Positions 18,395 through 59,018 of a stretch of 64,000 nucleotides of DNA are shown in pieces. A model generated the notes under the pieces. It saw only the letters and a program-made list of their open reading frames with translations, was not told the DNA's origin and did not search any database. The position numbers and the translations under genes are program-made. Position 1 is the stretch's first letter. Every line of letters starts with the position of its first letter. This DNA comes from Candidatus Obscuribacterales bacterium (GTDB lineage: Bacteria; Cyanobacteriota; Vampirovibrionia; Obscuribacterales; Obscuribacteraceae): assembly GCA_965228855.1 (NCBI GenBank), contig CBDDIJ010000002.1, forward strand, positions 960,001 through 1,024,000. Direction: 5' to 3'.

Positions 18395-18456
18395 TATAGT
18401 AGGCAGGGTGGAAGAGGAGAACCGCATGGTGCCGGTGGGCAGACCATGCGGTTCTC
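18395..18456 (-). terminator. hairpin followed by CTACTATA motif
   Basis: 14-bp perfect stem 18417-18430/18443-18456; TATAGTAG (+ strand) at 18395-18402. Confidence 0.8.
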
Positions 18457-18462
18457 GGGGCG

Positions 18463-19377
18463 TCAGACCGTCGCTTTGACCGGTCGCTTGAGCGACTCGT
18501 CAGCCTGTTGCGACAGTTCGACGATGCGGTCGAAGACGACCGTCATGGCTGCCTTGTAGTCGTTCGGCAAATCCTCGACGGGGATGGGCTTGCCGAATGC
18601 GATGGCGGCGCCGTACATCGTTTCGCCGTAGAAGTCGCGGAACTTCTTCCAGCCCAAGCCTTCGAGCAGCCGCTGCAGCCAGGTGGCGTGCGTCGGATCG
18701 CGGTCGTAGGCGATGGCTGCCGGCAGGAAGGCCACTGGACGGCTGCTCTTCTCGGCGGTTTTCTTGCCGATCATGAGCGCGCCGTCGAAGAATTGTTCGC
18801 GTTTCAAAACGTTGTCGCGGATGAGTTGTCCTTGCGGAAAGACGATGGCGTCACTGTCTTCGTCTTGTTGCATGATGCGAATCATGCCGCGCAGGGCCGC
18901 ACTCGGATTCTTGTCGTGGTGTACTGCGATTACGCCCAGCCAGGCGGCCGCCGGCACGCGGATGCCGAAGATTTGCGTGACTGCCATCAGAGCCCGCACC
19001 ACCCGCAGTCGCAAGCTGGTCGGGATGATAAGCACGTCCCGCTCCGTCTGGTGGTTGATGAGGATGATCAGGCGCCGCTTGTCTCTCATGTGGTGAGAAC
19101 CGATGCGCTTGATCGGACCGATATAGCGCCACGCCATGAAGTTGAAGGCGATCAGTCGGGCGATGCGCGCAAAGATCGGCGCGCGCGGGGTGACGTAGCC
19201 TGGCTGTTCCACCAGCTTCTTGCCCTCGCGCCACCAGAAGCGGACCCGGTAGGCGAGCCCGCCGAGGGCAGCTAGTGCCAGGAGACCGCCGACGATCCAC
19301 AGCGCCAGGGCGCCATCGAAAAGAAGAGCCGACTGTCCGTTGGCTCCTTCAAACAGCCGAATCGTGTTGAGTTCCAT
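18463..19377 (-). CDS. lysophospholipid/1-acylglycerol-phosphate acyltransferase family protein
   Basis: N-terminal TM, NHQTERD (HX4D) and VFPQG motifs. Confidence 0.8.
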   Translation of the reverse strand: MELNTIRLFEGANGQSALLFDGALALWIVGGLLALAALGGLAYRVRFWWREGKKLVEQPGYVTPRAPIFARIARLIAFNFMAWRYIGPIKRIGSHHMRDKRRLIILINHQTERDVLIIPTSLRLRVVRALMAVTQIFGIRVPAAAWLGVIAVHHDKNPSAALRGMIRIMQQDEDSDAIVFPQGQLIRDNVLKREQFFDGALMIGKKTAEKSSRPVAFLPAAIAYDRDPTHATWLQRLLEGLGWKKFRDFYGETMYGAAIAFGKPIPVEDLPNDYKAAMTVVFDRIVELSQQADESLKRPVKATV

Positions 19378-19442
19378 GATAGGTTCTGTTCTCCTACTCT
19401 ATTTCTTGAGGTGAAGGTGAATTAGATTTGCGCGGAGTCGCC

Positions 19443-21158
19443 CTACGCAGGCTGGGTTTCACCGCCGGCGCTTTTGTCCGCTCCGCTCTTCGCGGCATCG
19501 AGCTCCACGGCGATTTTCTTGATCGCCTTGAGGTCGAGCTTGCCGGACGCGGTCTGCGCGAACGGACCAGTCACCTTGTAGAAGTCGCTTGCCTTCGGGA
19601 TCCACAACGCGTGCATCCCGCTTGCGGTCAGCGCTCTGGTGAGCTCAGTCGGATTGACTTTCTCGTCGGTGTAGAGCACGACGAGCTTCTCACCCTTCGC
19701 GACGTCCGGGATGGCGCAGACGGCGATCGAGAGTTCATCCACGCCGGCGAGCGTGCGCAACTCCGCCTCCACGCGGATGATCGGCACCATCTCGGGACCG
19801 ACCTTGGCGAAACGGCTCTCACGGTCGGTGAGGTAGACGAAACCGTCCTCGTCGACCGCACCGATGTCGCCGGTGAAGTACCAGCCGTTCTGAAGGCAGT
19901 TCGCGGTCTCGCGGGGCTTGCCGTAGTAACCCTTCATGATCTGCGGACCGTTGACGAAGATGCGTCCTTCATTCTTCCGCCCTCGCGGCAGAATGGCGTT
20001 AGTCGCCGGGTCGACGACGGCGATGGCCGAGCCTGGCACCATCTGACCGACCGAGCCCTCGCGGGTTCCGCGGACGATTGCACCGGTTGGGCTCTGGACG
20101 TCGAAACTGTTGCAGCTCGACAGGAGCGGCGACGTTTCGGTGCAGCCGTAGCCTTCGAGCGGTTCCTTGCCGAGTTGCACGCGGATGTCGCGGGCCAGTT
20201 CGGGCTTGAGCTTCTCGGAGCCCATCATAAGCAGCTTGACGGACTCGAACTGTTCCTTCTTGCCGCGTTTCAGGTAGTTGCGCATGAAGGTCGGCGTCGT
20301 CGCCATCGCCGTGATGCCGTTTTCCGCGATGAACTCGCAGATGCCGCGGGCGTCGAGCGGGTTGTGGTGCGGGTAGAGTTCCCACCCCAGCACGAGCCCG
20401 GCCCAGAGCGTCACGCCGAAGCCGTACGAGTGGAAGTAGGGCAGGCAGCCCAGCACTTTCTCCTCGCCGACCTTGGCGTGTTCGGCGAGTTGAGCGATGT
20501 TGTAGAGCAAGTTGGAGTTGGTGAGCTGCACGCCCTTGGGCTCACCGGTCGAACCGCTCGTGAACATGATGCTGGCCGTGTCGTCCAGCCCCTTGCCCAT
20601 GCCCGGGAAGACGAACTTCCAGAAGCTCGTCGGCGTCACTTTGTTCAGCACCCAGGCGACCATTTTGGCGGCGTCAGGCACCTGCTGTGCGACGTCCTCG
20701 AGGTGGACGACCTTCGCTGCGATCTTGAAGCCGCCCTTGTCGATCACGCGCTTCGACGTGTAGACCGTTGTCAGCCCGGTCTGCTCGATGGCGCTGTTAA
20801 TCGGACCGTCGCCCGAGCTGTAGTTCAGGTTGATCGGAATCTTGCCGAGCAGCGTGATGGCGATGTTGAGAATCAGGCTGTGCTTCGATGGCGGCAGGAG
20901 AATGCCGACGAAGTCGCTCCCGTCGAGGTCTTCGAGGATGGTGCAGGCGAGCGCCGAAGCCGCGAGAAGTGCCTCGCCGTTCGTGGCGCTCTCTCCGGAG
21001 CTGTCCTTGACGAGCAGCTTATGAGGGTTCTGACGTGCGCGTGTGACGAACGCCGCGAGCGGCGAGGTCCAGTGCTCCGGCAGTACCGGGCAGGGGCGGT
21101 CGGGAAGGACCGCGTCACGGGCTGGGAAAACGAGACCGTTGTCGGTTGAGGTGCTCAA
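19443..21158 (-). CDS. AMP-binding protein resembling the acyl-ACP synthetase domain of Aas
   Basis: FTSGSTGEPKG, LPYFHSYG, EGYGCTE, WYFTGD, SRFAKVG, SGKLD. Confidence 0.88.
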   Translation of the reverse strand: MSTSTDNGLVFPARDAVLPDRPCPVLPEHWTSPLAAFVTRARQNPHKLLVKDSSGESATNGEALLAASALACTILEDLDGSDFVGILLPPSKHSLILNIAITLLGKIPINLNYSSGDGPINSAIEQTGLTTVYTSKRVIDKGGFKIAAKVVHLEDVAQQVPDAAKMVAWVLNKVTPTSFWKFVFPGMGKGLDDTASIMFTSGSTGEPKGVQLTNSNLLYNIAQLAEHAKVGEEKVLGCLPYFHSYGFGVTLWAGLVLGWELYPHHNPLDARGICEFIAENGITAMATTPTFMRNYLKRGKKEQFESVKLLMMGSEKLKPELARDIRVQLGKEPLEGYGCTETSPLLSSCNSFDVQSPTGAIVRGTREGSVGQMVPGSAIAVVDPATNAILPRGRKNEGRIFVNGPQIMKGYYGKPRETANCLQNGWYFTGDIGAVDEDGFVYLTDRESRFAKVGPEMVPIIRVEAELRTLAGVDELSIAVCAIPDVAKGEKLVVLYTDEKVNPTELTRALTASGMHALWIPKASDFYKVTGPFAQTASGKLDLKAIKKIAVELDAAKSGADKSAGGETQPA

Positions 21159-21645
21159 GGTTTCGACCTTTCATTCGGAGTGAGACAAGAAGCTCAGCTG
21201 TGGCTCCCTGTCGGTGCGTGGAATGCGGATGCGAAGGAGGCAACGCTCTAGCTATAAGCGATGCGGCTCCAGGGAAGCGTTAACGGTTTTCCTCTCAGGT
21301 CTCTACACAGACAGAATTACCAGGACGATTCCATGAAGAATCGAACTGGATTTGTTGCTGTAGCGGAAACGCTTGACTGTGGTTGGGTGAGACTCAGTGA
21401 TGAGGAAAAAACGCGTATGTTTTAGACTACTTTTGTGCTTTGCTTCCAAACAACCAACGTTACGACAAGCGACGCACGTCGGGCTGAATCCGGCTATTCA
21501 GGCTGGCACTCTTGATATTGATGTAATTGCCGCAAGCTGACGACGGACGATGTGCGGAAATCACCCGGCTGAATCGAGAAATCTTCGAATGCTTTTGACG
21601 TAAATTCGGGTATAAAACGCCCTATGTCGCTCAAGGATTCTTTTT

Positions 21646-24220: not shown

Positions 24221-24485
24221 AAGATTCCTCCGCTACACACAGCTGAACATCGCGGTTTCACACCTTCCGAATTCTTTTGTACCCATGAACATGCCGGTCC
24301 TCTCGCCGCGCGAGAGCAAATTTGAACTTTCATATCCAAGTCGTATTGCCGAATCTGTGCGCCACCCCATGAACTATAGATGTTAGTAACCTTCTATAAA
24401 AAGTCAAGATGGTTTGGGCTGGGACGGCTATTTTTGAAGCTGTACAATATGTCCTCAGTCGACTTTATATATTGGAGAGGATGCC

Positions 24486-27345: not shown

Positions 27346-27658
27346 GGCTGCCAGAAACGGCAAACTACTATAAGGAATCGTGTGGAGTGAGTTCCCGAAA
27401 CGTCATGGGGGAGATGCTTTCGCCCCCTGGGGGCTGATCGCGAGAGGTGTTTGTCTACGATACGTAGCCGGAATTTCGGGAAAGCGTCATAGCCACGTAG
27501 CCAAGTCGGGAAATTCGGAGCGTCACCTTGGTCGAGAGTGCTGCAAAAGCCGATGGCACAACGAGTTGTGGGCGTACGGAGATATGAAAGTATATAGTAG
27601 GAAGATTTGGCTACGCTACGTAGCCGGAATTTCGGGAAAGCGTTGTACGTTAGAGATT

Positions 27659-27893
27659 GACAGCAGACCCAATCAATTGACACCAGGTCCTGCTGTCGGC
27701 AAGGCTATCCGAGGACGCGAGGATAGAGAAACGGAAGAAACCAGGAAAAAGCGTATGACCGCGAAGTCAGGCTATGAGGTTTGGACTTCCGTTTCTGTCT
27801 TGTCCTCTGAGGCTGAACACTATCAGATGCAAATCCTAGAACGATTTAGCATGCGTACAAGGCTCGCCCTGACAAGATTCTATCCGCGTCCTG
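27659..27893 (+). ncRNA. IS110 bridge RNA (target-binding and donor-binding loops); boundaries approximate
   Basis: 5' hairpin 27659-27697; guides GAAAAAGCGT (27745-54), GGCTATGA (27770-77), ACACTATC (27817-24) and CGTACAAG (27854-61) match target and donor halves. Confidence 0.88.
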
Positions 27894-27925
27894 TGTAGGT
27901 TGGCAAGTCTAAATGGAGGCGCATC

Positions 27926-28891
27926 GTGATATCACTTGGGATAGACATCTCTAAAGAGACTGTGGATTGCTATCTGCTCTCGGAACGAGGGCGGAAGTTG
28001 CACGCTGACAACTCTGACAGCGGATTTCGGCGAATTGAGAAGTGGCTGAATCAGCACACCGAAAGCGAAGTACAAATTTGCATGGAGGCCACTGGAAAGC
28101 TCTGGGAGCCACTCGCAGAATACTTCTGCGACAAAGGTTTTGCCGTCAGCGTCGTCAATCCTGTTCAGATCAAAAACTTTGGCAAAAGCCTGTTGAAGCG
28201 TTCAAAGACGGACGCAATTGATGCCGAGGTAATCGCACAGTTTTGCAAACTGATTCAACCGAAGACCTGGACGCCCCTCCCGGACGTGGTCCGGAAGATT
28301 CGCAACATTGAGCGTCACATTGATGCGCTCAAGACCGACCGAACCAGAACCGTGAATCGTACCGAGTCCGGTCGGCTCGACGAACCTGTGAGTATCTCGC
28401 TTCAGCGGCAAATCGAATTCATCAACAATGAGATTTTGCTGCTGGAACAGGCTCGAGACCTCTTGATCAAGTCCGAACCGCAATTTCAGAACGATCTCGC
28501 CTTACTGCAAACCATCCCTGGAGTCGGTTTGATCTCGGCACTCACGTTTCTCACGGAAATTTCCGGCTTGGATTCCTTCGAGTCGTTGAGAGAAGTCGAG
28601 AGCTACTGCGGCTTGACTCCGGAATTGCGCGAGTCTGGAACTTCTGTTCGAGGGCGTCCGAAGATGTCTAAGAAAGGCTGCAAGCGCCTCCGGAAAGTTT
28701 TCTACATGGCGTCTCTGAGCGCAGTTCGATCAAACCCTGCCATTCAAAAATTCGCGACAAAGTTGGCAGAGAAGTGCAAACCAAGGAAAGTCATCTTGTG
28801 CGCCGCCATGCGCAAGCTACTTCGCATCATGATGGCGATCTACAGGACAAAGACACCATTTAATCCCAATCATCTAAGCGTTCATTGTTGA
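27926..28891 (+). CDS. IS110 family DEDD transposase/recombinase
   Basis: GIDISK, MEATG, KTDAIDA, IPGVG, ESGTS, AAMRKL motifs; GGAGG RBS. Confidence 0.97.
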   Translation: MISLGIDISKETVDCYLLSERGRKLHADNSDSGFRRIEKWLNQHTESEVQICMEATGKLWEPLAEYFCDKGFAVSVVNPVQIKNFGKSLLKRSKTDAIDAEVIAQFCKLIQPKTWTPLPDVVRKIRNIERHIDALKTDRTRTVNRTESGRLDEPVSISLQRQIEFINNEILLLEQARDLLIKSEPQFQNDLALLQTIPGVGLISALTFLTEISGLDSFESLREVESYCGLTPELRESGTSVRGRPKMSKKGCKRLRKVFYMASLSAVRSNPAIQKFATKLAEKCKPRKVILCAAMRKLLRIMMAIYRTKTPFNPNHLSVHC

Positions 28892-29170
28892 CAGCGAACA
28901 CACTATCTCATAGCCACGTAGCCAAATCGGGAATTTCGGAGCGTTACCTTGGCCGAGAGTGCTGCAAAAGCTGATAGCACAACGATTTGTGGACGCGTGC
29001 GGATATGAAAGCATATAGTAGAGAGTTTTGTCTACGCTACGCTGCCGGAATTTTGAAAAAGCGTCATGCCTACGCCGCCAAATCGGGATTTAAAGGCCTG
29101 GGCTTTTGAGAGGAAACCCCGTAAAGGCTCATCTGGGCTTTGATTCTGGCGAAGAGGATATATGCTGCCG

Positions 29171-29225
29171 TATAGTAGGAAGAGTCGGGAGAAGTAACGG
29201 GGGGCTCCGAAGAGCCTCCCGCTAC
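29171..29225 (-). terminator. hairpin followed by CTACTATA motif
   Basis: stem 29194-29207/29212-29225; TATAGTAG at 29171-29178. Confidence 0.75.
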
Positions 29226-29391: not shown

Positions 29392-29724
29392 CTAAATCGT
29401 TCCGAACGCTCTGGCTATCGCCATCGAGCCCAGAACCAGCGAGGTCAGAATGATGAGCGCTGCCTTCTTGCCGAACCTGGCATAAAGGCGCTCAACAATC
29501 GACTTGTGCTGGTATTCCGGGTCGTGACGATGAATCAGCCACTTCACGATCGGATTGAGAGGACAACTCTGCAGATAAAGCTGCAGAGCTACGATCACGC
29601 CGAGGGTGGCGTAATACGCAAGCTCCGACATCCAGAGGCGCCCGAACAAAAGAACTGCTGCTGCCAGGGGCAGATGCAGAACATCGAGCGTCTTCCCCAG
29701 GAGCCAGCAGGCTCGGTTGAACAT
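29392..29724 (-). CDS. small membrane protein with CPL motif (DUF2784-like, tentative)
   Basis: about three TM segments, LH and SCPLN motifs; AAAGGA RBS. Confidence 0.6.
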   Translation of the reverse strand: MFNRACWLLGKTLDVLHLPLAAAVLLFGRLWMSELAYYATLGVIVALQLYLQSCPLNPIVKWLIHRHDPEYQHKSIVERLYARFGKKAALIILTSLVLGSMAIARAFGTI

Positions 29725-29876
29725 CAGCAAATCCTTTCGAACTTTTGTGCGCACCCCTGAGAAGCGGCACGACCAGGCAAGCTTCACAGGTGAAACCGCG
29801 GTCGCCTGGCCTTAACGCTTCTCAGAGGCGCGCACGGGCGAGACTGCGCCAGGACTGGTCGAGTGCATCAGATGCA

Positions 29877-30293
29877 TCAACCGGTACCGGCGAAGTCTCG
29901 CGTGATTTCGACCTTACCGCGCAGCAGCAGGGAAAACAGCTCGTCTTTCGCGACTGCTCCCCGTGCCCCGGCTTCGACCATCAACTTGTTGAGCGAAGGC
30001 AGCCCGCTTATCCCGATTACTGGGATGCCGGCTGCCACCAGATACGAGGTCACTTCCGGCCCGTCGATGGGGCTGCCTTTGAGACGAAAGTCGACGAGCG
30101 CGAGCTCGTAGTCTCCGTCCCGCAACACCGTCTCGGCGCCATCTTCCGACATGAGAGTCAAACCGCTGCCATCGGGCGACAACCGCGCTCGCACGAACCA
30201 CGAAACGCCGTGATTCGTTTTCTCGAAGACGGTCATGAAAAGCTCGCCCAATACCAGGTCATCCTCGACGAAGAGGATTTTTTGTGACGGCAT
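29877..30293 (-). CDS. single-domain response regulator
   Basis: ILFVEDD, LVDFRL, GISG, K. Confidence 0.8.
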   Translation of the reverse strand: MPSQKILFVEDDLVLGELFMTVFEKTNHGVSWFVRARLSPDGSGLTLMSEDGAETVLRDGDYELALVDFRLKGSPIDGPEVTSYLVAAGIPVIGISGLPSLNKLMVEAGARGAVAKDELFSLLLRGKVEITRDFAGTG

Positions 30294-30330
30294 AGTGCCT
30301 CCCGTTTAGTGCGTGACGCAGGCGAGCTTC

Positions 30331-31155
30331 TCAGCTCGCACTGCGCCATTCCGCGTTCTGGTAGACGAACGTCTCGCCGTTGAAGACGAGTCGGAAGTCG
30401 TAGCCGAGGTAATCGGCAGCCTTCACGCAAGCCTGGAAACGGTCGCTGTAAAGACCCATGATGAGCGAGCCACCGCAGACGCGTGTGTCGATCGTCAGGT
30501 CGAGGCAGATGTCGCCGAGCTTGAGGTTGTTGGCCGGCGCCGGTTTGTCGCGGAAAACGACGTCCGCCTTCTTGATGGCGAAGTTGGCGCGGTCGTGCTC
30601 GCTGCCCTTGCGCAGCGGGATCCAGGTGGCGCGGAAGAGACGCAGCACCGAGAGCACAGCAGCGCGCACGGGGCGCACACGCTCTTCATCACCGACGCAC
30701 TTGTCCGCCAGCACGACGATCGCCCAAGCCGGGTCATCGAACGGCATTTTCAGCACGATCTGCGAGCGGTGGCAGGCGACGATGCGCGCGATCCGGTTGA
30801 TGACCGGGACGGGCAGCGTTTCGGTTTCGCCAGGCAGACGCAGCCGACCGAGGTAGCCCTTGGTCCACTTCGCGCCTGCTTTGGCGTGCTCGTCGACGTC
30901 GATCGCGCGACCGATGTCGTGAAGATATGCGGCGAGCGGCACGACAACGTCGGTCGTCCACTCGTCGAGAAAACCGGGCTTGCGCCCGTTCAGACCGGAC
31001 GAGATCTTCACGGCCAGGTCGCGGACCTGTTCGGCGTGATCGATGTCGTGCTTGGTCTGGTGTTGGCTGAGCTTGTCGCCGGCCGCATAGAGAGCGGAGA
31101 TTTCCGGATCCGAAAAGCACTGCGCAACAAGGAGTTTTGCTTTGATAAGCTCCAT
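30331..31155 (-). CDS. HD-domain phosphohydrolase
   Basis: HDIDH, YLHDIGR, HAKAG, CHRS, LADK motifs. Confidence 0.85.
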   Translation of the reverse strand: MELIKAKLLVAQCFSDPEISALYAAGDKLSQHQTKHDIDHAEQVRDLAVKISSGLNGRKPGFLDEWTTDVVVPLAAYLHDIGRAIDVDEHAKAGAKWTKGYLGRLRLPGETETLPVPVINRIARIVACHRSQIVLKMPFDDPAWAIVVLADKCVGDEERVRPVRAAVLSVLRLFRATWIPLRKGSEHDRANFAIKKADVVFRDKPAPANNLKLGDICLDLTIDTRVCGGSLIMGLYSDRFQACVKAADYLGYDFRLVFNGETFVYQNAEWRSAS

Positions 31156-43459: not shown

Positions 43460-43700
43460 CGGGTCGCGGTATCAAAAATTTCTTCTGTTCATACCGTTAT
43501 CGGAATCCCCGCATTTTCATTCCGCTGGCGGAATTTGAATCAGTTTTGGCTTATGTCGCTCGGAGAAAGTGCAAAGCTGCAGAGTTGAGCATGATGAGTT
43601 TTTGATTTCAAATCTACATGCAGGTCACGGTATCAAACACTTCGTCAGCTATGCCGCATGAGGAATGACCCGTATGGGCATTCTCTTGGCGGTATCGATA
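43460..43700. repeat. two degenerate units (period about 160) with family B palindromes
   Basis: GGTC(G/A)CGGTATCAAA then AT(A/G)CCG...GGAAT...CATTC...TGGCGG at 43491-43534 and 43650-43695. Confidence 0.7.
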
Positions 43701-43873
43701 TCCAAGCCAATCTATGCCGTGAGAGGAATTTTGTTGATTTTGGATTTCGTTGATTTGTTGATTTGTTGATCTCTGATTTCGGAAATCCAAGTTTTGAAGC
43801 GCACTAAGCTCGGGTGTGGTCCTGTAAAGGGTTGTCGATGCTTGATTTGCTCGATTTCGCGGATACGCTGGAA

Positions 43874-43943
43874 TATAGTAGGAAAAATTTGGGAAAGTGA
43901 TGGGTGGAGCGAGCCAGCTGGAGAGCCGGTCACACCACCCATC
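43874..43943 (-). terminator. hairpin followed by CTACTATA motif
   Basis: GATGGGTGG / CCACCCATC outer arms; TATAGTAG at 43874-43881. Confidence 0.7.
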
Positions 43944-46027: not shown

Positions 46028-46612
46028 CTTCGTTGTCTCCAAAGTTTATTCTCCAGTCGAATGCGATTGCTCGACTGGTCCCCAATCGCTTCGCGATGGA
46101 GATGATTAAGAGCCGCGGCGAACCTTCGGGTTTGAAGCCGTTGAGCGCGAGCGGATTAAGCGAGGAGTTAACTTTCCACTGAATGGAATGACGCACTGAT
46201 ATTTCGTTGTGACAGAGACAAATTTTTCGCGAACGAAACACCTTGTGCGAAGAAAACAGCAGACGCGTAAAACTAGGAAAGAAATCCACTTTGAATCAAG
46301 AAATGTTCTTTGGATATTTCTTGGTTTTTATTCAGCTAAGGTCTCCCCGGTGGAAAGATCTTGTTTCGAGACAAACTGCGAGGGCGAACTGCGAGCTTTG
46401 TCAGAGCTTGCCCGGCTTAGGATTTGACCGGCCCGGGGACGGCTTACCTGGATGACAAGTGGTCGCGCTAGTCTAGCGGAAGGCGAGTTTGGCGGCGCTG
46501 GCTGTGTGCTTACGAGCTGCTGTTTTGGAGTTACGGGTGTGGCGTCGGGGTGCGACGGCGTGAGCTGAGGTGTGAGCTGGGGTGTGGAGGTGTGAGTCGT
46601 TCAACCATCGGA

Positions 46613-46671
46613 TATAGTAAAAGTGCAATGAGGCAAGAACACCGGAAACCCTATGGTTCCCGGCGTTCTTG
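46613..46671 (-). terminator. hairpin followed by TTACTATA motif
   Basis: stem 46634-46650/46655-46671; TATAGTAA at 46613-46620. Confidence 0.7.
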
Positions 46672-46831: not shown

Positions 46832-48559
46832 TCACTGCTTGGGCTGTTCCTGCGTGGGTTGTTCCTCCTTGTGCAGCTTGCGGCGAGCGAGGCTGTGGTG
46901 CCGCGAGTAGGTAACGAAGAGAACGACGACGGCGGACCAGACGGCGACGAGCCGTGCGAATGACTCCCAGGGGAGCTCCATCATCAGGCGCGCCGGTCCG
47001 AGGATGCCGAGCGTCGCTACGACCACCCAGAACGAGCCCTTTAGTGCGTTTCGGCGCGTCTTCCAGTCGGTTTCCTTCACGGTCAAAACGAGCACCGTCA
47101 GGGAGATGGTGATAAACGCGGTCATGGTGCCGATGTTCGTCAGGTGCATCAACTCACCCACCGCCATCAAGCCGGTGAGCAGCGAGATGAAACCGCCCAC
47201 GACTAACGTCGCGAGAACTGGCACCTGGCGTTTGCTCGACACTTGCTCGAACGCGCTCGGCATGAGCCCGTGTTGGGCCATATTGAACAGCAGTCGGGTG
47301 GTCGCGTAGGCGCTGGCCAGCACCACGGAAACGAGCGCCACTGTCGACCCCAGCGCAACCCAGATAGCCGCCGATTTGTAGCCCAACAGCTCCAGTCCTT
47401 GAACCATGGGTGCCGCCTCGCCCCCGTGACCGTGCGCTGCGATCTTGGTGAACGGCACAGCTCCCGCGTACGCGAAGGCTGCGATGAAATACAGTGCCGT
47501 GACGCAGACCAGCCCGATCAGCATGCCGAGCGGAACGTTGCGTTTCGCGTTCTTCACTTCGCCTGCAGTTGTGGTTGCCAGGTCGAGTCCGACGAAGGCG
47601 AAGAACGCCACGGACGCGCCGGCAAGCGAACCCGGCAGTTTGTCCGGAACGGGAATCGCCAGGTTCGCCCAGTCGAAGTGGCGAGCGAAGAAGACGATGA
47701 TTACTGCCAGAACGCACAGCTTCGTGATGGTGAAGATGTTCGTCAGAATCGCTGTTTCCTTCACGCCACGAAGCAGAACGCCGGTGATGAGCAGCACTAC
47801 GCCCATTGAGAGCAGGTTGATGGATGGCAGATCGGCGGCGAACTTGAGCGCGAACAGGAAGCAAGCCACGCTCGTGAAGAGCACGAGAGATAGGGAGAGC
47901 ATCGGCAGGAGGCGAGCCTGAAAGTTGCGGGCCGGTAAGTTGCGGGCCGGTAAGTGGTGGACTTCCTTCAGTCGTCTCGAACCGTACGACCAGAAGAACC
48001 AGGCTGCGATGCCGGATGCCAGCGCGCAACTCAGTGCTTTCCAGTTCACCACCTCTGGTGTCGTGGTGAGGAATTCGTTGAGCTTCCAGCTCTGTCCGAA
48101 CCATTCCTCGCCGACGAGCCGGATGATCAGCTTGATGTGGTCCGCCTGGGAGACCGCCACGGCAGCGGTTCCACCGATGCATTCCATCATAACGTCGACG
48201 AACATCAGGAGTCCGGGCAGTTGTCCGAGTACGAGGCACGCGTAGCTGCCGGTGCTTCCGCTCTTCGCCGTTCTGCTTGCCATGAATGCGAGGCACAGAG
48301 CCGGACACAGGCAAATCATGCCGGCTTGAACGAAGCTGAGCCAGGCATTGGGTCCGGCATAGTCGCGGGCGATGATACCGGGGGTGGTGAGAATTCCGGA
48401 ACCAACCGCCGACGTGATGGTAAACAGGATCACCGAGAAGAGTCCCATCTGGCGCATGAGCTTGTCGCCGGCTGCGCCGTGGGCTTCCTCGATGTCGATT
48501 TTCTGAGTGGCGTCGTGAACCACGCCGCCCAGCCAATTGCGGATGTTTGAAAAACCCAT
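46832..48559 (-). CDS. APC family amino acid permease (paralog of 44375-46027)
   Basis: same motifs; long shared stretches such as GILTTPGIIARDYAGP and AVGELMHLTNIGTMTAFITISLTVLV. Confidence 0.9.
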   Translation of the reverse strand: MGFSNIRNWLGGVVHDATQKIDIEEAHGAAGDKLMRQMGLFSVILFTITSAVGSGILTTPGIIARDYAGPNAWLSFVQAGMICLCPALCLAFMASRTAKSGSTGSYACLVLGQLPGLLMFVDVMMECIGGTAAVAVSQADHIKLIIRLVGEEWFGQSWKLNEFLTTTPEVVNWKALSCALASGIAAWFFWSYGSRRLKEVHHLPARNLPARNFQARLLPMLSLSLVLFTSVACFLFALKFAADLPSINLLSMGVVLLITGVLLRGVKETAILTNIFTITKLCVLAVIIVFFARHFDWANLAIPVPDKLPGSLAGASVAFFAFVGLDLATTTAGEVKNAKRNVPLGMLIGLVCVTALYFIAAFAYAGAVPFTKIAAHGHGGEAAPMVQGLELLGYKSAAIWVALGSTVALVSVVLASAYATTRLLFNMAQHGLMPSAFEQVSSKRQVPVLATLVVGGFISLLTGLMAVGELMHLTNIGTMTAFITISLTVLVLTVKETDWKTRRNALKGSFWVVVATLGILGPARLMMELPWESFARLVAVWSAVVVLFVTYSRHHSLARRKLHKEEQPTQEQPKQ

Positions 48560-49427
48560 GCAGTGTTCCTTGTGTGAAAGTACTGTCGGTTCAGAAAAGA
48601 ACCGGCTTGGATTTGCTTGCGAGAACGTCTCCGCAAGCGGGTCTTTGCTTGGACTTGAAGCTGCGAGTGAGTGGACGCGTCGTTGTCGCGAACGGAACCA
48701 CTTCGCTTCGTGCGCGAGGAAAAACTGTTAACTGCCGGTGGGGATGCTGCTTTCGAGAGCTACAGGTGTTTCCTTTCTGAAAAGAAAATTGGGTATTAAG
48801 GCAACGTAGCTGAATGGTTTTTCACAAAGCAATAGTGCTAAAGGGCTAGAAATGCCATGTTTGTCAAGTGGTTGCGCAAACACCGCCATTCTTAGCAAAT
48901 TTGGTTCCTGCATTACTTTTCTCACAGCGTAGCCGTCGGTCACCTTCAATATCGCGACCAGTTTTGACAAGGTGCGTTCTGCAAAGCTCAGTACAGTCTA
49001 GGTTTTGGACACTTGAGTCTCGATTAATCTCAACATCTAACTTCCCGCAGTATCAATTCGCTAGTTACTTAGTTTTATTGCTCCTGCCAAGTCTTAAAGC
49101 TACGGTTAGGGCCTGTTTCATAACCAGTGTTTCGGAAAACCACTACCGCTTTTCCAAAATCTCTGTCTACACCTCTACGCCCGTCCTGCTCGTTTACTCG
49201 CGCGCCCGAAGTCGTCCGCGTGTGTGATGTTCGTGTGCTTTAGTTTTGAGTTCGGAGAGAGCTTGAGATGAAAGTCGCGCGCAATCTGCACTCGGTCTAT
49301 TCGTGTGCGGATTAAGTCACTTCGGTCAATTCGGATCGAGTTAACGAGCAGAGGGAAACCCAACTAAGTCGGGACCGGGTTTTCCAGTGTCTGTCTGTCC
49401 CGCGAAACTGCTAAGGAGCTAAGTTTT

Positions 49428-49877
49428 ATGAGCGATCAAAACGAGAAGGCTGTCAGCCTTTTCACCGCGTCCATCTCCGCGCTCGTCGACGTTGTTGTGA
49501 GCGGTCGCGCACGCAGTGCCCGCATTCGCTACACGGACCCGAACGGTCCGTCGCTTCGCAATTTCTGGTGGATTTCGGTCGACAAGATCGAAACTGCCCA
49601 GCACGAGGAGCCCAAGCTCTTCGCTGCCACCAACGACCTCGATCTGATGTGCGGCGCACCGCCGTCCTTCCACAAGAGCGTTGCGCTGTCGTCTGCCAGC
49701 GAGCTGGTCGACGCCGCGGTTGCGTTTCTGTCCGAGAAGCTCGGCACCGCCGCCAAGGTGGACATCCTTCTGCAGGCTGATGCCCCGCAGGGTCAGCCCG
49801 CGATTCCGGCCTACGTCGGCAACTCCGACGACGGCTTCGAAAACCTCATGGAGCAGTCGGTTCCCGACATCTTCTGA
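49428..49877 (+). CDS. hypothetical protein
   Basis: AAGGAG RBS; GC3-rich 149-aa ORF. Confidence 0.7.
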   Translation: MSDQNEKAVSLFTASISALVDVVVSGRARSARIRYTDPNGPSLRNFWWISVDKIETAQHEEPKLFAATNDLDLMCGAPPSFHKSVALSSASELVDAAVAFLSEKLGTAAKVDILLQADAPQGQPAIPAYVGNSDDGFENLMEQSVPDIF

Positions 49878-50042
49878 ATCGAGCGAACGGTAATGTCGCG
49901 CTGAGCTTCGAGCCTGCGCGCTACTTCGCTCGGTTCCAAAAGAAATCCGGTGGCGTCACAAGCGCCACCGGATACGGTGTCATGCGCTGCTCCCATTCTC
50001 ACACCCTAACGCAGCTGAACAGCTGTTACGGAGAGCAAAACC

Positions 50043-51593
50043 ATGAATCTCGAAATCAATGTCTCGTCAGGCAAGTTGGCTTCGGTTCTTCCCGAGTTCG
50101 AGGAAGAGCGCGCCACACTCGTCCTGGTTCTCTTTTCCGGTGAGGGTCTCAAGGGCGCTCACCTCGAAGCTGTCGAGGCCACGACCTCGGGGCTTCTCTC
50201 TCGCAGGATCGACAACGATGGTTTCGATCCGAAGTACAAGCAGACCAAGGTGATCGATACCGACCTGACCGTTCCCGGTCTCGACAAGGTCATCCTGGTC
50301 GGGCTCGGGCAGCGCTCCAAGCTCACGCTCGGCGGACTGCGCAAGGCGCTCGCCGACGCGTTTGTCGAGGCTCGTGACACGGCTCGCACCGAGCACCTGA
50401 TTTTCCCGCTCATCGATGTGGACCTTCGCGGTTTCACCGTCGAGGAGTTCGCCAAGGTGGTCGCCGAGTACGCGACCCTGGCTGACTACGAGCCCAACCA
50501 CCGCAGGACTCGCGAGTGGCGCGACGAGGCTCCGGCGACGCACTTCAAGTCGCTGACTCTGCTTTCCACGCGCAGCACTCTGAGTGCCGCCAAGCGTGGT
50601 GCCGCCCTTGGTGGCGCCATGGGGGCAGCCACTCGACTGGCGCGCGACCTCGTCAACGAGCCCGGCGACACCAAGACGCCGACCTGGCTCGCCAAGCAGG
50701 CTTCGAAGATGGCGGCCGAAACCAACGGCGTCGTCACCTGCAGGGTGTTCAAGAAGGCGGACATCGTGAAGATGAAGATGGGCGGTCTGCTCGCGGTCAA
50801 TCGCGGTTCGGCCGAGCCCCCGACCTTCATCGAGCTCTCTTATGACCCGGCTTCCGGCGCCACCGAGGAGGTGGTCGGGCTGGTCGGCAAGGGCGTCACG
50901 TACGACACTGGTGGTCTCAACATGAAGGACTACACCAGCATGCGTGACATGAAGATGGACATGGGTGGCGCCGCTGCAGTGATCGCGGCGATGTCGCTCA
51001 TGCCGGTGATCAAGCCGCGTTACTCGATCCGCGCCGTCATCGCTGCAACCGACAATGCGGTCAGCAACAAGGCGATGCAGCCGGGTGACATCATCAAGTC
51101 GATGTCCGGTCTCACCATCGAAGTCGGTCACACCGATGCTGAAGGTCGCCTGACGCTGGCTGACGCTCTGCACTACATGCAGGAGAAGTGCGGCGCCAAG
51201 CGGATCATCGACCTCGCCACACTCACCGGCGATATCGAAACCGCGGTCGGCATCTACACGACCGGCATCTTCGGCAACGACGACCGCTTCACGCGCCTCT
51301 ATAAGCGCGCTGCGGAGGTCGCCGGCGAGCCTGTTCACGAGCTGCCTCTGGACGAGGCCTACCGTGACGAGAACAAGGGGCAGTTCGCCGACCTGACCAA
51401 CGACGGTTCCGGACCGGGGCACATCATCGCCGCCTGGTTCCTCCGCGAGTTCGTCAAGGACGGTGTTTCCTGGATCCATGCCGACATCGCCGGCACCGCG
51501 TTCCGCACCGCTGCCACCGCCTACGGTATCGAAGCGGCTGGTGGCACCGGCGTCGGCGTGCGCACGCTCGCGCATCTGCTGGCAGACCTGTAA
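50043..51593 (+). CDS. pepA: M17 leucyl aminopeptidase
   Basis: ARDLVNEP, VGKGVTYDTGG..MK, MKMDMGG, HTDAEGRL, DLATLTG, WIHADIAG. Confidence 0.9.
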   Translation: MNLEINVSSGKLASVLPEFEEERATLVLVLFSGEGLKGAHLEAVEATTSGLLSRRIDNDGFDPKYKQTKVIDTDLTVPGLDKVILVGLGQRSKLTLGGLRKALADAFVEARDTARTEHLIFPLIDVDLRGFTVEEFAKVVAEYATLADYEPNHRRTREWRDEAPATHFKSLTLLSTRSTLSAAKRGAALGGAMGAATRLARDLVNEPGDTKTPTWLAKQASKMAAETNGVVTCRVFKKADIVKMKMGGLLAVNRGSAEPPTFIELSYDPASGATEEVVGLVGKGVTYDTGGLNMKDYTSMRDMKMDMGGAAAVIAAMSLMPVIKPRYSIRAVIAATDNAVSNKAMQPGDIIKSMSGLTIEVGHTDAEGRLTLADALHYMQEKCGAKRIIDLATLTGDIETAVGIYTTGIFGNDDRFTRLYKRAAEVAGEPVHELPLDEAYRDENKGQFADLTNDGSGPGHIIAAWFLREFVKDGVSWIHADIAGTAFRTAATAYGIEAAGGTGVGVRTLAHLLADL

Positions 51594-51792
51594 GCGCTTC
51601 ATCGCGGCTGCGTTTGTTTCGATTTGTCAGTATCGGTTTCGACCGGTATCAGCGAACTGTTGGTGGCGAGGATTGGCTGACGAGGACGGGCGTTTCGTAT
51701 TAGAAGCGCCCGTCTCTCGTGGTCTGGCAACTCGCGGTTCAAAACAGCGTCAGGGCAGCGCTGACTACCTGCTCCTTCTCGAAAGGTCCGTT

Positions 51793-52233
51793 ATGAACGG
51801 AATATACGTCCTCATCGGCATGGGCTTGCTCGTGTTCGTGCTCTACACCTTCATGCACAGCCAGGCCAACTATGGCTCCGGTTCTGCTTCCGGCGGCTCG
51901 CCGCGCGGTTCTCGTCGCAACCAAGAGCGCGCCGATGCACGCATCGCCGAGTCCAATTCGCTTTTGATGCGCGGCAAGCTCATCGAAGCCGAAGCGGGCT
52001 TCCGCGAAGCGTTCCAGCTCGCTGTCGGGGCTCCGCTGCTGATGTCCGAAGCTTGCTGGGGTCTGAGCGAGGTCTGCAAGAAGCGCGGCGATTGGAAAAG
52101 CGCCCTGCAGCACATCGACATGGCTCTGTCCTTCGCGCCCGAATGGCGCGAGTACAAGCCCAACTACGAGTCGTATCTGAAGCGCGATCGCGAGGAAATC
52201 GCGGCGAAGCTCAAGGGCGACTTGCCGGAGTAA
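51793..52233 (+). CDS. membrane-anchored TPR-like protein
   Basis: GAAAGG RBS; N-terminal TM then TPR-like helices. Confidence 0.7.
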   Translation: MNGIYVLIGMGLLVFVLYTFMHSQANYGSGSASGGSPRGSRRNQERADARIAESNSLLMRGKLIEAEAGFREAFQLAVGAPLLMSEACWGLSEVCKKRGDWKSALQHIDMALSFAPEWREYKPNYESYLKRDREEIAAKLKGDLPE

Positions 52234-52381
52234 AGCTGGTTGCAAAACCGGCTGTAACAGTTTTGCGCAGCGGTTTCGACCTGTTAGTGAGACTGGCAGG
52301 CGAAAACCATTATTGCTGAACGAGGCCCGGGACTGGCGCCAGGCGCTAGTTCCGAGGCTCTATCAACAAGGAAACTCGCAC

Positions 52382-52630
52382 ATGAGCTATCTGTTTTTCC
52401 TCGTGGTCGGTCTTCTGTGGGGCGTGGGCTGCGGCATCTGCGATGCCCGCGGCATCCTCCGCAATGACCGTCCCATCATGCAGTTGCTGACCGGTCTGGT
52501 CGGCTACGGCATCACCTGGCTGCTCTTTCTGGGTCAGCCGGTTGGCGGGCACTGGTTTCTCCACCTGATTCTGGTGGTCACTGTCAGCCAGCTCGTTCAT
52601 TACCAGGTTCGGGCTCGTCTGTTGAAGTGA
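52382..52630 (+). CDS. small 3-TM membrane protein
   Basis: AAGGA RBS; three hydrophobic segments. Confidence 0.65.
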   Translation: MSYLFFLVVGLLWGVGCGICDARGILRNDRPIMQLLTGLVGYGITWLLFLGQPVGGHWFLHLILVVTVSQLVHYQVRARLLK

Positions 52631-52760
52631 GGCTTCAAGGAGTCGTTTCCAACAGCGACTCGTTGTGCAATCACCTCAGCGACTCGAATCTCGACCTGCC
52701 GATTGCAGGTCATCTCATTTTTCTCAATGAAACTCGTGCAACCCAAAATGGGAGATTCTC

Positions 52761-53276
52761 ATGAGTACTGAAAACAATCCTGCCCCGCCGCCGAAGATCG
52801 AAGAACCGGCGCGCGAGGACTCGTATTTCGAGAAGCTGATCCGGTACATCCCGCTCGACATCATCGCGGCGTATCAGGCGATCGATGGTATCATTCGCGA
52901 TCAGGGCAGCAATCCGCTCTGGCTTTACTGGGCTGCGTTCGGCGGTCTGCTCGTTCTGACTCCGTTGTACACGGTCTATCGCCCCAACGTCCCGCCGTCG
53001 CTGCTGCACGCCAAGACGCGTTTCTGCGCCTTTGTGAGCACGGTCGCCTTCACCGTGTGGGTTTTCGCGCTCGGCGGTCCTTTCGCGATCACCTGGCCGG
53101 AACTCTACCGTCCGGTCTACGGGTCCGTCCTGCTCATCCTGACGGCTCTCGCCCTGCCCGTTGTCGAGAAGATCGTCCTGCGCGGCGGCACCATCCCCGG
53201 TGTCGGCAAGCGGCCGGCCGGCTCGGAAGACGCGGGTAAGCCTGGTCCCGACCAGGACTCCGACTCCGGCAAGTAA
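52761..53276 (+). CDS. multi-pass membrane protein
   Basis: GGGAG RBS; YFEKLIRYIP..I.AAY segment followed by TM helices. Confidence 0.75.
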   Translation: MSTENNPAPPPKIEEPAREDSYFEKLIRYIPLDIIAAYQAIDGIIRDQGSNPLWLYWAAFGGLLVLTPLYTVYRPNVPPSLLHAKTRFCAFVSTVAFTVWVFALGGPFAITWPELYRPVYGSVLLILTALALPVVEKIVLRGGTIPGVGKRPAGSEDAGKPGPDQDSDSGK

Positions 53277-53377
53277 ACGCGCCACTGCTTGTGGTGCTCT
53301 CGAAAAATTGATGCGGTTGTGCTTACGAGGGATGCAGCGGGATTACCCGCTGCGAGCCCCTCCAGAGGACTCAACCT

Positions 53378-54289
53378 ATGACTGCTAAAGAAAAGCAGAC
53401 CTCGGTGAAATACGAGGTCGTTCTTGGTGGAGGTGGAATCAAAGGCTACGGACACATCGGTGTTTTGAAAGCCCTTCATGAACGCTCCATCAAGATTGGG
53501 ATGGTTACTGGTGTTTCGATTGGCTCTGCGGTCGCTGCGATGTATCGCAACGGCTACTCTCCCGACGAAGCGCTCGAAATCCTCCTCAAGGAATTCACCA
53601 TCTTCAACAAGAAGGTGATCGGCAAAGGCAAGAAGCCATCGAGCATGACGACGATGCTGTCGTTGGTCAGTGGTATCGACTTGCTGCCGTTTTTCCAGGA
53701 CGTGTTGACGCGCTACGAGGTCAAACCTCGTCGCAATCTTCGCATCGTCGCCTTCGACGCTCTGCAGATGAAACCCGTCGTGTTCCAGGGGCTCAAATAC
53801 GACATCGCAACCGCTGTTGCCGCGTCGTGCTCCATACCTGTCGTCATGCGTCCTGTCTGGACCGGCGACTGGAAGAAGGGGAAAACTGGGCGCACGATCG
53901 TCGATCGCGTGCGTGGCAAAGTTGACGAAACCGTCCTCGTGGATGGTGGCGTCTACCATCCTGCGCCACACGAGTTCTGCAAGGGACCGGCTATCATCAG
54001 CCGCCTCGGCGTCGCTTCGCAGATGCCCCAAGAGACTTACGACGAATGCAGCACCTGGGCGGAATATGTTTTCCAGTCCATCGAGGTCGCAGCGGGTCGG
54101 TTTATCAAACGCAACTTCCCGGACGAAAATTCCGGACACGTTGTCGTCAACAGCGGAAAGCCCGACGTTGGAACTCTGACGTTCGGCATCTGTCACGAAC
54201 AGGCGCTCGGCATGGTGGACTACGCTTACGCGGAAACCCACCGCGTGCTCGATTTGAAGAAGATTGGCACGCCGCCCACGTCCAAGTAA
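53378..54289 (+). CDS. patatin-like phospholipase
   Basis: GGGGIKG, GVSIG (GxSxG), ASCSIP, DGG motifs. Confidence 0.88.
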   Translation: MTAKEKQTSVKYEVVLGGGGIKGYGHIGVLKALHERSIKIGMVTGVSIGSAVAAMYRNGYSPDEALEILLKEFTIFNKKVIGKGKKPSSMTTMLSLVSGIDLLPFFQDVLTRYEVKPRRNLRIVAFDALQMKPVVFQGLKYDIATAVAASCSIPVVMRPVWTGDWKKGKTGRTIVDRVRGKVDETVLVDGGVYHPAPHEFCKGPAIISRLGVASQMPQETYDECSTWAEYVFQSIEVAAGRFIKRNFPDENSGHVVVNSGKPDVGTLTFGICHEQALGMVDYAYAETHRVLDLKKIGTPPTSK

Positions 54290-54292: not shown

Positions 54293-54347
54293 TGCCGTGG
54301 GTCAGACACCGTCTGACCCATTGGCATTCCGCCGTTTGTCTACTATA
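54293..54347 (+). terminator. hairpin followed by CTACTATA motif
   Basis: TGGGTCAGAC / GTCTGACCCA core stem; CTACTATA at 54340-54347. Confidence 0.78.
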
Positions 54348-54436
54348 AAATATCGGAAGTGTAAGATGCTCTAAACGTTGTCAGTGAAGGCATTTTGAGT
54401 ATCTTGTTTGGGCCGGATTCCTTGCAAATTGACGTT

Positions 54437-57862: not shown

Positions 57863-57971
57863 TTAGTTTAATTGATTCGAGCCGACTGCTTTGCCTCTGC
57901 CATTATGCGGCTACCGGCGTCGGCCAGCAAGGTCCGATAAAAACTGGTGCGAGCGTTTTCTTCAGCCCATG

Positions 57972-58622
57972 CTAATAGTCGAGGAGCATCTCCTCTTCGT
58001 CTGAGGTTGTGTATTCTTCGGCAATTTCTTCACTGACACCGCGAATTCCGCGAGGGACCGTTGTGTTTCTATAGACTCGATCTATGTCGACGGATAGCTC
58101 ATCTCCCTTCTTGAATTTCAGATGGATGGTTTCTCCGGAGATGTATTCGCGGAGCTCCCATCCTCCCGTTTCCGAGCGTTGATAAGCCTCTACACGTTTT
58201 CGCTTCTGGTGTAAAATCAAATAAGTCCGCAATGAGTCGATGTTCAAATAGTTGATGAGTTTTTCTCTTCTATCTTGTACGGCTGTTGATGGAGAGAGAA
58301 CCTCCGCTATGAATACGGGCTCTTCGGTAAACTCGATATCGTCGTTGAGACCGCTGCAAGCGATGACGACGTCTGGATAATAGAAGCAGTTTGCGCTTTC
58401 TATGCGTACTTTAAATGACTCTATGAACGCCAGGCAGGGCGTTTCATCTAAGTGATCGCTCAGGGCGCGATACAGATTTCCGGCTATGACGTTATGTTTC
58501 TGATTGGCTCCACTCATGGTGAAAACCAAGCCGTCTACGAATTCTCGTCGGACGGTCGATTTCCGTTCACTCGCCAGATATCCCTCGGCGGTCAAGAATT
58601 CGATCTTCTTCACTTCGCTCAT
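57972..58622 (-). CDS. Uma2 family endonuclease
   Basis: EYLASE..REFVDG, YYPDV, EVLSPST..DRREK..Y. Confidence 0.9.
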   Translation of the reverse strand: MSEVKKIEFLTAEGYLASERKSTVRREFVDGLVFTMSGANQKHNVIAGNLYRALSDHLDETPCLAFIESFKVRIESANCFYYPDVVIACSGLNDDIEFTEEPVFIAEVLSPSTAVQDRREKLINYLNIDSLRTYLILHQKRKRVEAYQRSETGGWELREYISGETIHLKFKKGDELSVDIDRVYRNTTVPRGIRGVSEEIAEEYTTSDEEEMLLDY

Positions 58623-58833
58623 ATAAAGACCCTCCACTCCCTCAATTGTAGTGGCGCGAACTTATCTACGCCAGCTTGTGGTTTGGAGTTCGAAAAGGCC
58701 AAATGGGCGTTAACGGGGTAATCCGTCAAGACCATCGCGGGCTACCGGTTCCAGTGTCCGGGTAGCGGACCGACTATCAGTCTGCGCGAATGCGGGACGT
58801 CTGGTAGGTAAAAAATACTCCCGAGCTCCTCGG

Positions 58834-58887
58834 TTGGCTATCTGAGGATGACGAATTCCTGTAAATTCGGCATCGTCAGATAGACAA
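58834..58887. repeat. REP-like palindrome, family A
   Basis: TTGGCTATCTGA.GATG.CGAATT / AATTCG.CATC.TCAGATAGACAA. Confidence 0.65.
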
Positions 58888-58964
58888 GGCCGGGTGTGGG
58901 ATTGTTCTGCGGTCTGGCGAAGCCCGAACCACAAGAGTTTTGACACTCTGGTCGTAGTATGGCA

Positions 58965-59018
58965 TATAGTAGTAATTTCCTCCAAAAAAAAGAGAGGCAC
59001 CGTCCGTGGTGTCTCTCT
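58965..59018 (-). terminator. intrinsic terminator followed by CTACTATA motif
   Basis: AGAGAGGCACC / GGTGTCTCTCT stem with U-tract on the minus strand; TATAGTAG at 58965-58972. Confidence 0.85.

Follow-up and report, generated by a model that had tools for sequence, protein, structure and literature searches.

A 17-bp dyad behind the 3' hairpins of an origin-proximal gene class in a Candidatus Obscuribacterales bacterium

Around the replication origin of a Candidatus Obscuribacterales bacterium, many transcription units of a GC-rich gene class end in a strong hairpin followed, at a narrow distance, by a short palindrome, a 17-bp dyad of the form TACTA-N7-T(A/C)GTA. This arrangement is described here from a window of 64,000 nucleotides (positions 960,001 to 1,024,000 of the forward strand of contig CBDDIJ010000002.1, assembly GCA_965228855.1; coordinates without a contig or locus prefix are those of the window), which lies 165-230 kb from the origin, together with the whole source genome (G000) and the genomes of relatives. 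The gene class, its confinement to the origin, its synteny, the dyad, the spacing between hairpin and dyad and the recurrence of the layout in six genera are well supported, and from them we infer a function. Judged from sequence, the dyad would be a putative site for a host protein that insulates a stage-specific, origin-proximal gene programme, a tentative reading that we favour at somewhat under an even chance. In a literature search that did not cover subscription papers no description of the class or of the dyad was found, and the accessible part of the paper on Obscuribacter (PMC4040986) describes its metabolism, not this arrangement.

The dyad and its place behind class hairpins

The first-pass annotation of the window had listed eight gene blocks that end, in their coding direction, in a hairpin followed by the motif (C/T)TACTAT(A), and its coordinates and strands were borne out (18395, 29171, 37560, 43874, 46613 and 58965 on the minus strand, 41842 and 54340 on the plus strand), with a hairpin ahead of every motif. 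These hairpins are unrelated in sequence, as had been stated, and 75-nt stretches at the eight sites fold at -23 to -41 kcal/mol. The gaps given between hairpin and motif were recovered at three sites (12-14 nt); the other five fold with gaps of 3-10 nt because of additional weak outer pairs, and match the earlier values once these pairs are ignored. The window contains 19 copies of the heptamer YTACTAT where 3.27 are expected, and none of 100 shuffles reaches 19. No 8-mer of the genome is more over-represented than CTACTATA (292 copies, 58 expected), with 224 copies on contig C2, almost all within its first 1.2 Mb. All eight sites are thus real, but the motif is only half of the true unit, the 17-bp dyad, which in G000 is usually one end of a repeat of about 230 bp with a 56-bp core. 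Partner copies of the motif at 18135, 27365, 27600, 29021 and 37328, omitted in the first pass, have no comparable hairpin (-9.6 to -17.6 kcal/mol). In relatives that lack the core the dyad is found behind class hairpins as TACTA-N7-TAGTA.

The length of the spacer is fixed. In 353 kb of the relative G002, 27 sites have a spacer of 7 bp, while spacers of 5, 6, 8 and 9 bp occur 0, 0, 0 and 2 times, respectively; all ten arm bases are more than 90% conserved and the spacers vary from site to site. Sites for dimeric proteins are built in this way, as 5-7-5 palindromes with conserved arms, a free spacer and no orientation preference. The full dyad with its fixed 7-bp spacer argues for such a site more than for a -10 box. 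Of the earlier readings, that of a promoter or protein site comes closest, with the spacer favouring its second half. In its first half, the dyad would be an outward-facing pair of -10 boxes (TATAGT on both strands) from which the blocks receive antisense RNA and their neighbours sense RNA. TATAGT is indeed frequent on one side of the dyad in G000 and several other genera, and it follows 35 of the 48 class 3' ends that precede a backbone start. However, the T that completes the hexamer is present in only 31% of the G002 sites, although the ten arm bases are so well conserved, and the column frequencies give no sign of a -35 box. Furthermore, the implied starts would lie about 28 nt apart by our estimate, compared with the 10, 18 and 23 bp usual for bidirectional promoters in the part available of a study on them (PMC12825309), and confinement to the origin zone would not be expected of housekeeping promoters. 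We regard this pair of promoters as distinctly unlikely.

The dyad is also specific in its position. In G000 it occurs at 74/103 class 3' boundaries, 13/101 5' boundaries, 15/94 gaps within blocks and 39/208 gaps between backbone genes only, and in G002, which has no core, at 20/38, 0/43, 1/21 and 3/68, respectively. The distance from hairpin to motif is mostly 11-18 nt, with a peak at 13-17 nt in G000, and in six other genomes a strong hairpin lies within 70 nt of 53/77 dyads, compared with 266/1550 AT-rich control positions; G189 is the weakest in this respect (9/22). The narrow hairpin distance and the absence from 5' gaps tie the dyad to termination. Absence of the motif after backbone genes, as claimed in the first pass, holds as a strong link to GC-rich genes (88/241 class ends and 37/263 backbone ends; odds ratio 3.5, p 5e-9) but not as an exclusive one, the copy at 27365 lying behind a backbone gene at a distance of 20 nt. 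In folds of the window, modest hairpins were seen at speB and rtcB, with no dyad. A small class gene with DUF7352 (10678..11242, plus strand), earlier taken for a partial exception, ends in a degenerate dyad at 11226-11242, and a near-perfect dyad occupies the orthologous place in G002, G005 and G006. The dyad was also considered, and rejected, as the source of the GC richness: GC content at third codon positions (GC3) does not change with distance from the dyad, and the backbone genes by its other arm are not GC-rich.

An origin-proximal gene class inherited in place

Codon usage is bimodal in G000. The GC-rich class comprises 322 of the 754 genes in C2:62k-1.15M and 19 of the 4885 outside, most of the latter at the end of contig C5, and forms 96 blocks with a median length of 2.4 kb. 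The origin was placed at about C2:795k from the GC skew flip and dnaA. The similarity of the 16S gene to its cyanobacterial counterparts is about 82%. Most of the window's blocks are GC-rich, as had been reported, those ending at 29171 and 37560 being intermediate in codon usage (GC3 0.64-0.69). A strong hairpin follows 175/241 class ends and 71/264 backbone ends, the latter rate being about that found outside the zone, and 65/101 5' boundaries of class blocks are divergent. Upstream of class genes, mostly at 100-400 nt, lies a promoter-like motif, TTG-N21-TAG(G/T)(T/G)T, which is present in 18.8% of held-out class upstream regions and in 6.6% and 3.8% of those in the comparison sets, and in G002 in 10/45 class and 0/68 backbone upstream regions; a search limited to the 200 nt before starts had given nothing, and longer regions gave the motif. 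A scan of 120 class proteins gave a Pfam match at 1e-9 for 56, including 14 peptidases (a share without a backbone control). Other products are glucan hydrolases, patatins, enzymes of nicotinamide adenine dinucleotide (NAD) and phosphoribosyl pyrophosphate (PRPP), ClpB, MoxR-vWA sets and a PrkA-DUF444-SpoVR operon, and the blocks contain a sigma-70 factor, an S1-domain protein and a tRNA-Trp. The GC3 of class genes rises slowly from 0.65 to 0.82 over the first ~120 codons and is then flat to the stop, a rise that may come partly from wrong start calls. The tRNA-Trp gene (60063-60134) is an extra one within a class block, and tRNA-Lys and tRNA-Asp genes also lie in the zone; a tRNA array considered as serving the class was dismissed, being located on C3, outside the zone.

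Several origins of the class were examined. Ribosomal proteins and EF-Tu lie outside it; they prefer C-ending codons as the class does, and favour GAA, AAA and CAA over the GAG, AAG and CAG of the class (r 0.51). This opposite bias for Lys, Gln and Glu led us to reject the class as highly expressed genes of ribosomal type. A ribosomal protein cluster is located at C3:2.59-2.61 Mb, far from the origin. A giant GC-rich element made up of contig C4 and the first 60 kb of C2 was likewise discarded as the source on its gene content, which looks foreign (a cyclin, a eukaryotic-type glutaminyl-tRNA synthetase, conjugative-element genes and GC-rich metabolic genes), and on its almost complete lack of the motif; C4 and C2:1-60000 are likely contamination in the assembly and were excluded from every count. 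A phage origin is not supported either, as only 6 of 72 mostly Pfam-blank proteins match PHROGs and the core pattern has no match in viral contigs. TGGTGGCA, TGATACCA and similar words are strongly over-represented as well and evenly spread over the chromosome.

The order of the block genes is common to the genus. Over about 490 kb compared with the 95%-identical genome G007, 103/105 class genes and 179/207 backbone genes are present there, and no empty/filled pair of a block was found between the two. Contigs of three sequencing runs, which show presence only, contain no joint that could be read as a block circle, the listed joints lying in repeats or paralogous genes. The blocks are one system with a common 3' boundary, as the first-pass annotation had it, and this system extends across the family; but they are syntenic and vertically inherited with no breakpoint at the motif. 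This leaves hardly any credibility to the accompanying idea of currently mobile, HUH-type cassettes nicked at the motif. A hairpin and a short terminal motif at one end only do recall such elements; however, the block hairpins, unrelated as they are, offer no conserved subterminal hairpin, and no match to the Y1 HUH transposase family PF01797 was found in G000 (assembly 95% complete), IS91-type Y2 enzymes not having been searched. Class orthologs in G002 (n=44), G005 (12), G001 (3) and G012 (8) have accumulated 0.9-1.3 substitutions per fourfold site and kept a GC content at these sites (GC4) of 0.74-0.80, compared with near 0.6 in the backbone orthologs of the genus; in G012 the backbone is itself GC-rich (0.76), so the contrast is weak there. 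Fourfold or synonymous divergence is lower in class than in backbone genes. Since GC4 has been retained despite this many substitutions, the codon bias of the class seems to be maintained rather than left over from a donor. Polarised substitution counts were too few and parsimony-biased, and were not used.

The strongest rival to a site for an insulating protein supposes an attachment site with the geometry of tyrosine recombinases (5-bp arms, 7-bp overlap), at which new units were joined by their 3' ends over long times. This would explain both why the dyad is 3'-only in the boundary counts of G000 and G002 and why the class is confined to the origin zone. It is also the only form in which the earlier suggestion of capture at a target survives, as a slow and old process, not a recent one: lineage-specific class genes adjoin a dyad more often in G002 (17/26 vs 15/63, p 5e-4) and perhaps in G005 (3/3 vs 5/16, p 0.06), but show no such bias in G000 (4/15 vs 15/62) or G001. 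The block of an M49 peptidase is patchy among relatives, and PLD-HTH genes often lie between or beside dyad-like sites. The proposed check for tyrosine recombinases gave two Xer-like genes in the zone, both with degenerate active sites (C2:369829-370713, which is L093:9829-10713, and C2:923144-924055). The first of these encodes a protein with matches in 30/58 family genomes and 0/342 from other families, 91-93% identical in G001, G002, G004 and G005 and 71-74% in G012, G150 and G222. It has Lys, Gln and Asp at the positions of what we take to be the catalytic Arg, His and His, which speaks against recombination, as do the variable spacers, the lack of an empty/filled block pair and the promoters that the units apparently carry themselves. 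Moreover, capture alone leaves the lasting codon bias unexplained, and operon ends and small fast genes are more variable anyway. We therefore hold the attachment site to be unlikely, though deserving of attention. The check for reverse transcriptases gave four matches, one inside the origin zone; the gene there (C2:944579-945160) is followed by two arm motifs.

Five other genera, making six in all, have this layout too, with solitary dyads grouped near dnaA. Perfect dyads cluster near dnaA within 20% of one contig in G189 (11/11, p about 1e-6), lie near dnaA in G012 (10/10) and G202 (9/9) and fall on the dnaA contig in G222 (17/19). The genome G109, of another genus and with about 43% GC, has the same class, hairpins and solitary dyads; with a slightly looser pattern at least 50 places match there, and 48 of the 50 listed are at 2.41-2.99 Mb. 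In G189, genes with a GC3 of at least 0.63 occur in 10/12 stretches inside the zone, most of them chosen around dyads, and in 0/8 outside. The class gene pepA is present in 41/104 family genomes, with a GC3 of 0.69-0.88 at the 30 loci fetched, and lies within 230 kb of dnaA in G189, G202, G222 and G012. A different palindrome, of about 30 bp, recurs across the syntenic origin zone of G002, G005 and G006 (28, 15 and 10 places, e.g., L023:3515-3545) and was not found in G000, G001, G003, G004 or G007; in G002 it was rejected as linked to the dyad, only 11/44 lying within 400 bp. The tight clustering near dnaA would also suit a chromosome-organising site of the origin domain, similar to ram/RacA sites or parS, that stands behind hairpins only because this is transcription-free ground. 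In line with this, the only ParB match is on the foreign-looking contig C4, with none on the chromosome contigs of G000, and the distances from dyad to core cluster at 73, 84-86, 94-98 and 105-108 bp, in steps of about one helical turn. However, the 11-18 nt spacing and the 0/43 in the 5' intergenic regions of G002 require a link to termination, and the gene class is itself confined to the zone, which explains the clustering. An organising site is thus unlikely too, in our view slightly more so than an attachment site.

Passenger elements and the features of the window

In G000, inward-facing copies of the motif pair at 220-250 bp around the palindromic core, for which a profile finds 210 copies and its reverse none. 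Core-bearing gaps are common to G000 and G007 in 43 of 44 cases, the remaining one being a gene-call artefact, while the number of tandem cores differs between the two, and the core pattern is present in only one of 30 relatives. An IS110 element, whose protein has DEDD and Transposase_20 domains, is present in four near-identical copies, all at one point of a core, with an empty site in G007. At a different place in G007, a PLD-HTH gene and ten variant cores fill a slot that holds a plain repeat in G000, which has five diverged PLD-HTH genes, one of them flanked by cores (C2:103k). PLD-HTH matches were found in 32/59 family genomes, many of them partial only; the full-length protein has no match in G202 and only partial ones in G189 and G222, all three with dyads. 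It was therefore rejected as the conserved dyad binder and counted as a passenger. The ~230-bp repeat, the PLD-HTH genes and IS110 are passengers that colonised dyad slots in this lineage, and they crowd near the origin because they occupy these slots of the host. A selfish repeat of REPIN or miniature inverted-repeat transposable element (MITE) type, copied by a PLD-HTH nuclease and inserting behind strong hairpins supplied by the GC-rich genes, would account for the 210 cores, the cores around PLD-HTH genes at C2:103k and in G007 and the varying tandem numbers, that is, for the passengers. As an explanation of the dyad it is largely refuted and very improbable, given the solitary dyads of G002, G109 and G189, the near-absence of the core pattern from relatives, the dyad-bearing genomes in which full-length PLD-HTH was not found and the core-bearing gaps shared with G007.

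Within the window, the dyad at 18385..18401 closes a class block with an AMP-binding enzyme and an acyltransferase (18463..21158, minus strand; GC3 0.85 and 0.80), which is syntenic in G001, G002 and G004-G007. A terminator-like hairpin folds at 18417..18456 (minus strand), 14 nt ahead of the motif, and the dyad is the right end of a repeat at 18135-18402 (core 18240-18295). To its left, at 11274-17980, five backbone genes (a regulator, two histidine kinases, a small gene and an amidase) are unmatched in the syntenic stretches of G002, G005 and G006, and the two kinases and the small gene are missing in G007. A compound repeat at 27365..29178 (dyad, cores 27450-27505 and 29027-29082, tandem half-copies) is split by the IS110 element (27644..28908, plus strand; transposase 27926-28891), inserted in a core. 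Its dyad at 29161..29177 stands behind a hairpin at ~29195-29225 of a block of HD-domain, receiver-like and small genes with intermediate to high GC3 (29392..31155, minus strand). Tandem repeats of ~39 nt are present at 35776-35660 and 33003-33110, 3' of the gene ending at 35776. A complete repeat (37328..37567: dyad, core 37426-37481, dyad 37550-37566), with a hairpin at 37581-37627, follows a thioredoxin reductase and a 133-amino-acid gene of intermediate GC3 (0.64-0.68; 37707..39332, minus strand).

The M49 peptidase gene of the class (40097..41707, plus strand; GC3 0.79), without a match at E<=1e-60 in G004, G005 and G006, has a candidate promoter (TTG..TAGGTT) at 39769..39799 (plus strand) and a dyad at 41843..41859 behind a hairpin at 41784-41827. 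Beyond it, an insert with approximate ends (41895..43781, plus strand) carries a PLD-HTH gene (42489-43349), and G007 has a core there; the insert has its own short inverted and direct repeats, which differ from the core, and PLD-HTH paralogs may each have their own repeat type. Two amino-acid permeases follow. The first (44375..46027, minus strand; GC3 0.75) ends in a dyad at 43864..43880 behind a hairpin at 43899-43943, and the second (46832..48559, minus strand; GC3 0.78; candidate promoter ~48803-48832) in a degenerate dyad at 46603..46619 behind a hairpin at ~46630-46670, with a variant core at 46712-46767 between stop codon and hairpin, of which G007 has six copies in tandem. For the window's permease, one relative was confirmed in the genome collection, with 99% identity. 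The class operon at 49428..54289 (plus strand) encodes a leucyl aminopeptidase (50043-51593), a TPR protein and a patatin. Its candidate promoter at 49078..49106 (plus strand) resembles, by eye, a motif upstream of the same gene in G001, G002 and G004-G007, and its dyad at 54341..54357, behind a hairpin at 54292-54327, is the left end of a repeat at 54340-54597 (core 54436-54491). The last dyad (58955..58971; core 58833-58888) stands behind a hairpin at ~58990-59021 of the block that contains the S1-domain gene, the tRNA-Trp gene and two orphan genes (59084..61059, minus strand).

Possible insulation of transcription units and relation to known systems

The roughly 300 origin-proximal genes form an inherited class with its own codon usage and strong 3' hairpins. 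In the mechanism that we propose, this class would be a programme that an alternative sigma factor activates during a single stage of life, acting through the TTG-N21-TAG(G/T)(T/G)T promoter. The dyad, likely a palindrome for a dimeric host protein, is predicted to form a barrier to transcription behind each hairpin, and the bound protein would halt both run-on out of class units and run-in from neighbouring backbone genes. A barrier role is suggested because no match to the RNA-binding domain of Rho was found in G000 and backbone genes mostly lack hairpins. A weak candidate for the dyad binder is the Xer-like protein encoded in the zone, with its restriction to the family and its degenerate catalytic residues. 

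Several observations weigh against this reading. A scored dyad is missing at about 28% (G000) and 47% (G002) of class 3' boundaries, and some dyads sit between backbone genes. In the window, a solitary one with one mismatch (24372..24388), also present in G002, breaks the 3'-end rule by lying between two divergent backbone genes. At E<=1e-45 the dyad-bearing genomes G109 and G189 gave no match to the Xer-like candidate, and the sigma factor of the class was found at E<=1e-75 in only 4/58 other family genomes, all of the same genus. The promoter motif is present in 0/8 GC-rich and 2/22 backbone upstream regions in G012 and elsewhere in a minority of upstream regions. In most genomes, genome-wide dyad counts are not above those of a reversed-pattern control; this control is the commoner word and uninformative, so the case for the dyad rests on spacer specificity and position. 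Besides, gene classes were defined with our own gene caller, the stretches of G189, G109 and G012 (mostly) and three contigs of G002 were chosen for the motif hits already known in them, which biases the totals, and related genomes are not statistically independent of each other.

A bolder version, which we think doubtful, is that the origin fifth of the chromosome holds a second genome of about 100 units with its own promoter, codon dialect, terminators and boundary protein. Its task would be a life stage of its own, for instance one in which another cell is fed on from outside or within, or one in a compartment that contains only the origin region, and it would still be growing by slow capture at the dyad. 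A large second gene class with a lasting codon usage, restricted to the origin zone and closed by one protein-type site, would hint at a life stage not known so far in these uncultured, non-photosynthetic bacteria, a sister group of Cyanobacteria known mainly from assembled metagenomes. It would likewise hint at an undescribed insulation of transcription units in an organism for which a search for Rho gave no match. The dyad provides a bait for its protein and a simple marker with which the programme can be mapped across the family.

Among known systems, the parS/ParB and RacA sites of Bacillus subtilis resemble the dyads in being many short origin-proximal sites for one (here presumed) binding protein, although parS, according to the part of the work available, has 1-20 sites over 10-650 kb and dyads number dozens to more than 100 over 0.9-1.4 Mb (PMC7174722). 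Unlike those sites, dyads are fixed to the 3' hairpins of one gene class, and no chromosomal ParB was found. Integrons are characterised by promoterless cassettes in a tandem array, each with an attC site recognised by the integrase IntI. Dyad units share with them a single, recombination-like 3' site on unrelated cargo and perhaps some gene turnover beside it; however, they are dispersed rather than arrayed, end in 17 bp rather than in a long folded attC, contain several genes, apparently have their own promoters and keep a stable synteny. Of the PF00589 matches, the one zone-encoded Xer-like protein that was compared with the integron integrase model TIGR02249 scored 43.9 bits, the cut-off being 265. 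The ~230-bp repeat is comparable to REPIN-RAYT systems, which, as far as the accessible text goes, are likewise extragenic, palindromic, vertically kept, lineage-specific and targeted by IS110 (10.1101/2021.07.10.451892). It differs in that no Y1 HUH transposase accompanies it, several diverged PLD-HTH copies of which one is core-flanked taking the place of a single-copy RAYT gene flanked by repeats, and in being anchored on an older host dyad. The IS110 element of the window inserts at one point of a dispersed palindromic repeat, as the IS621/IS110 bridge recombinases that target repetitive extragenic palindromic (REP) sequences do in the portion of the source available (PMC11208160). No essential difference between the two was seen. 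Finally, the class as a whole resembles stage-specific regulons of alternative sigma factors, for example the genes of the B. subtilis forespore that lie in its trapped origin region, likewise a gene set near oriC with its own promoter type. Neither a separate codon usage conserved between genera nor a common 3' dyad is known to us from such regulons.

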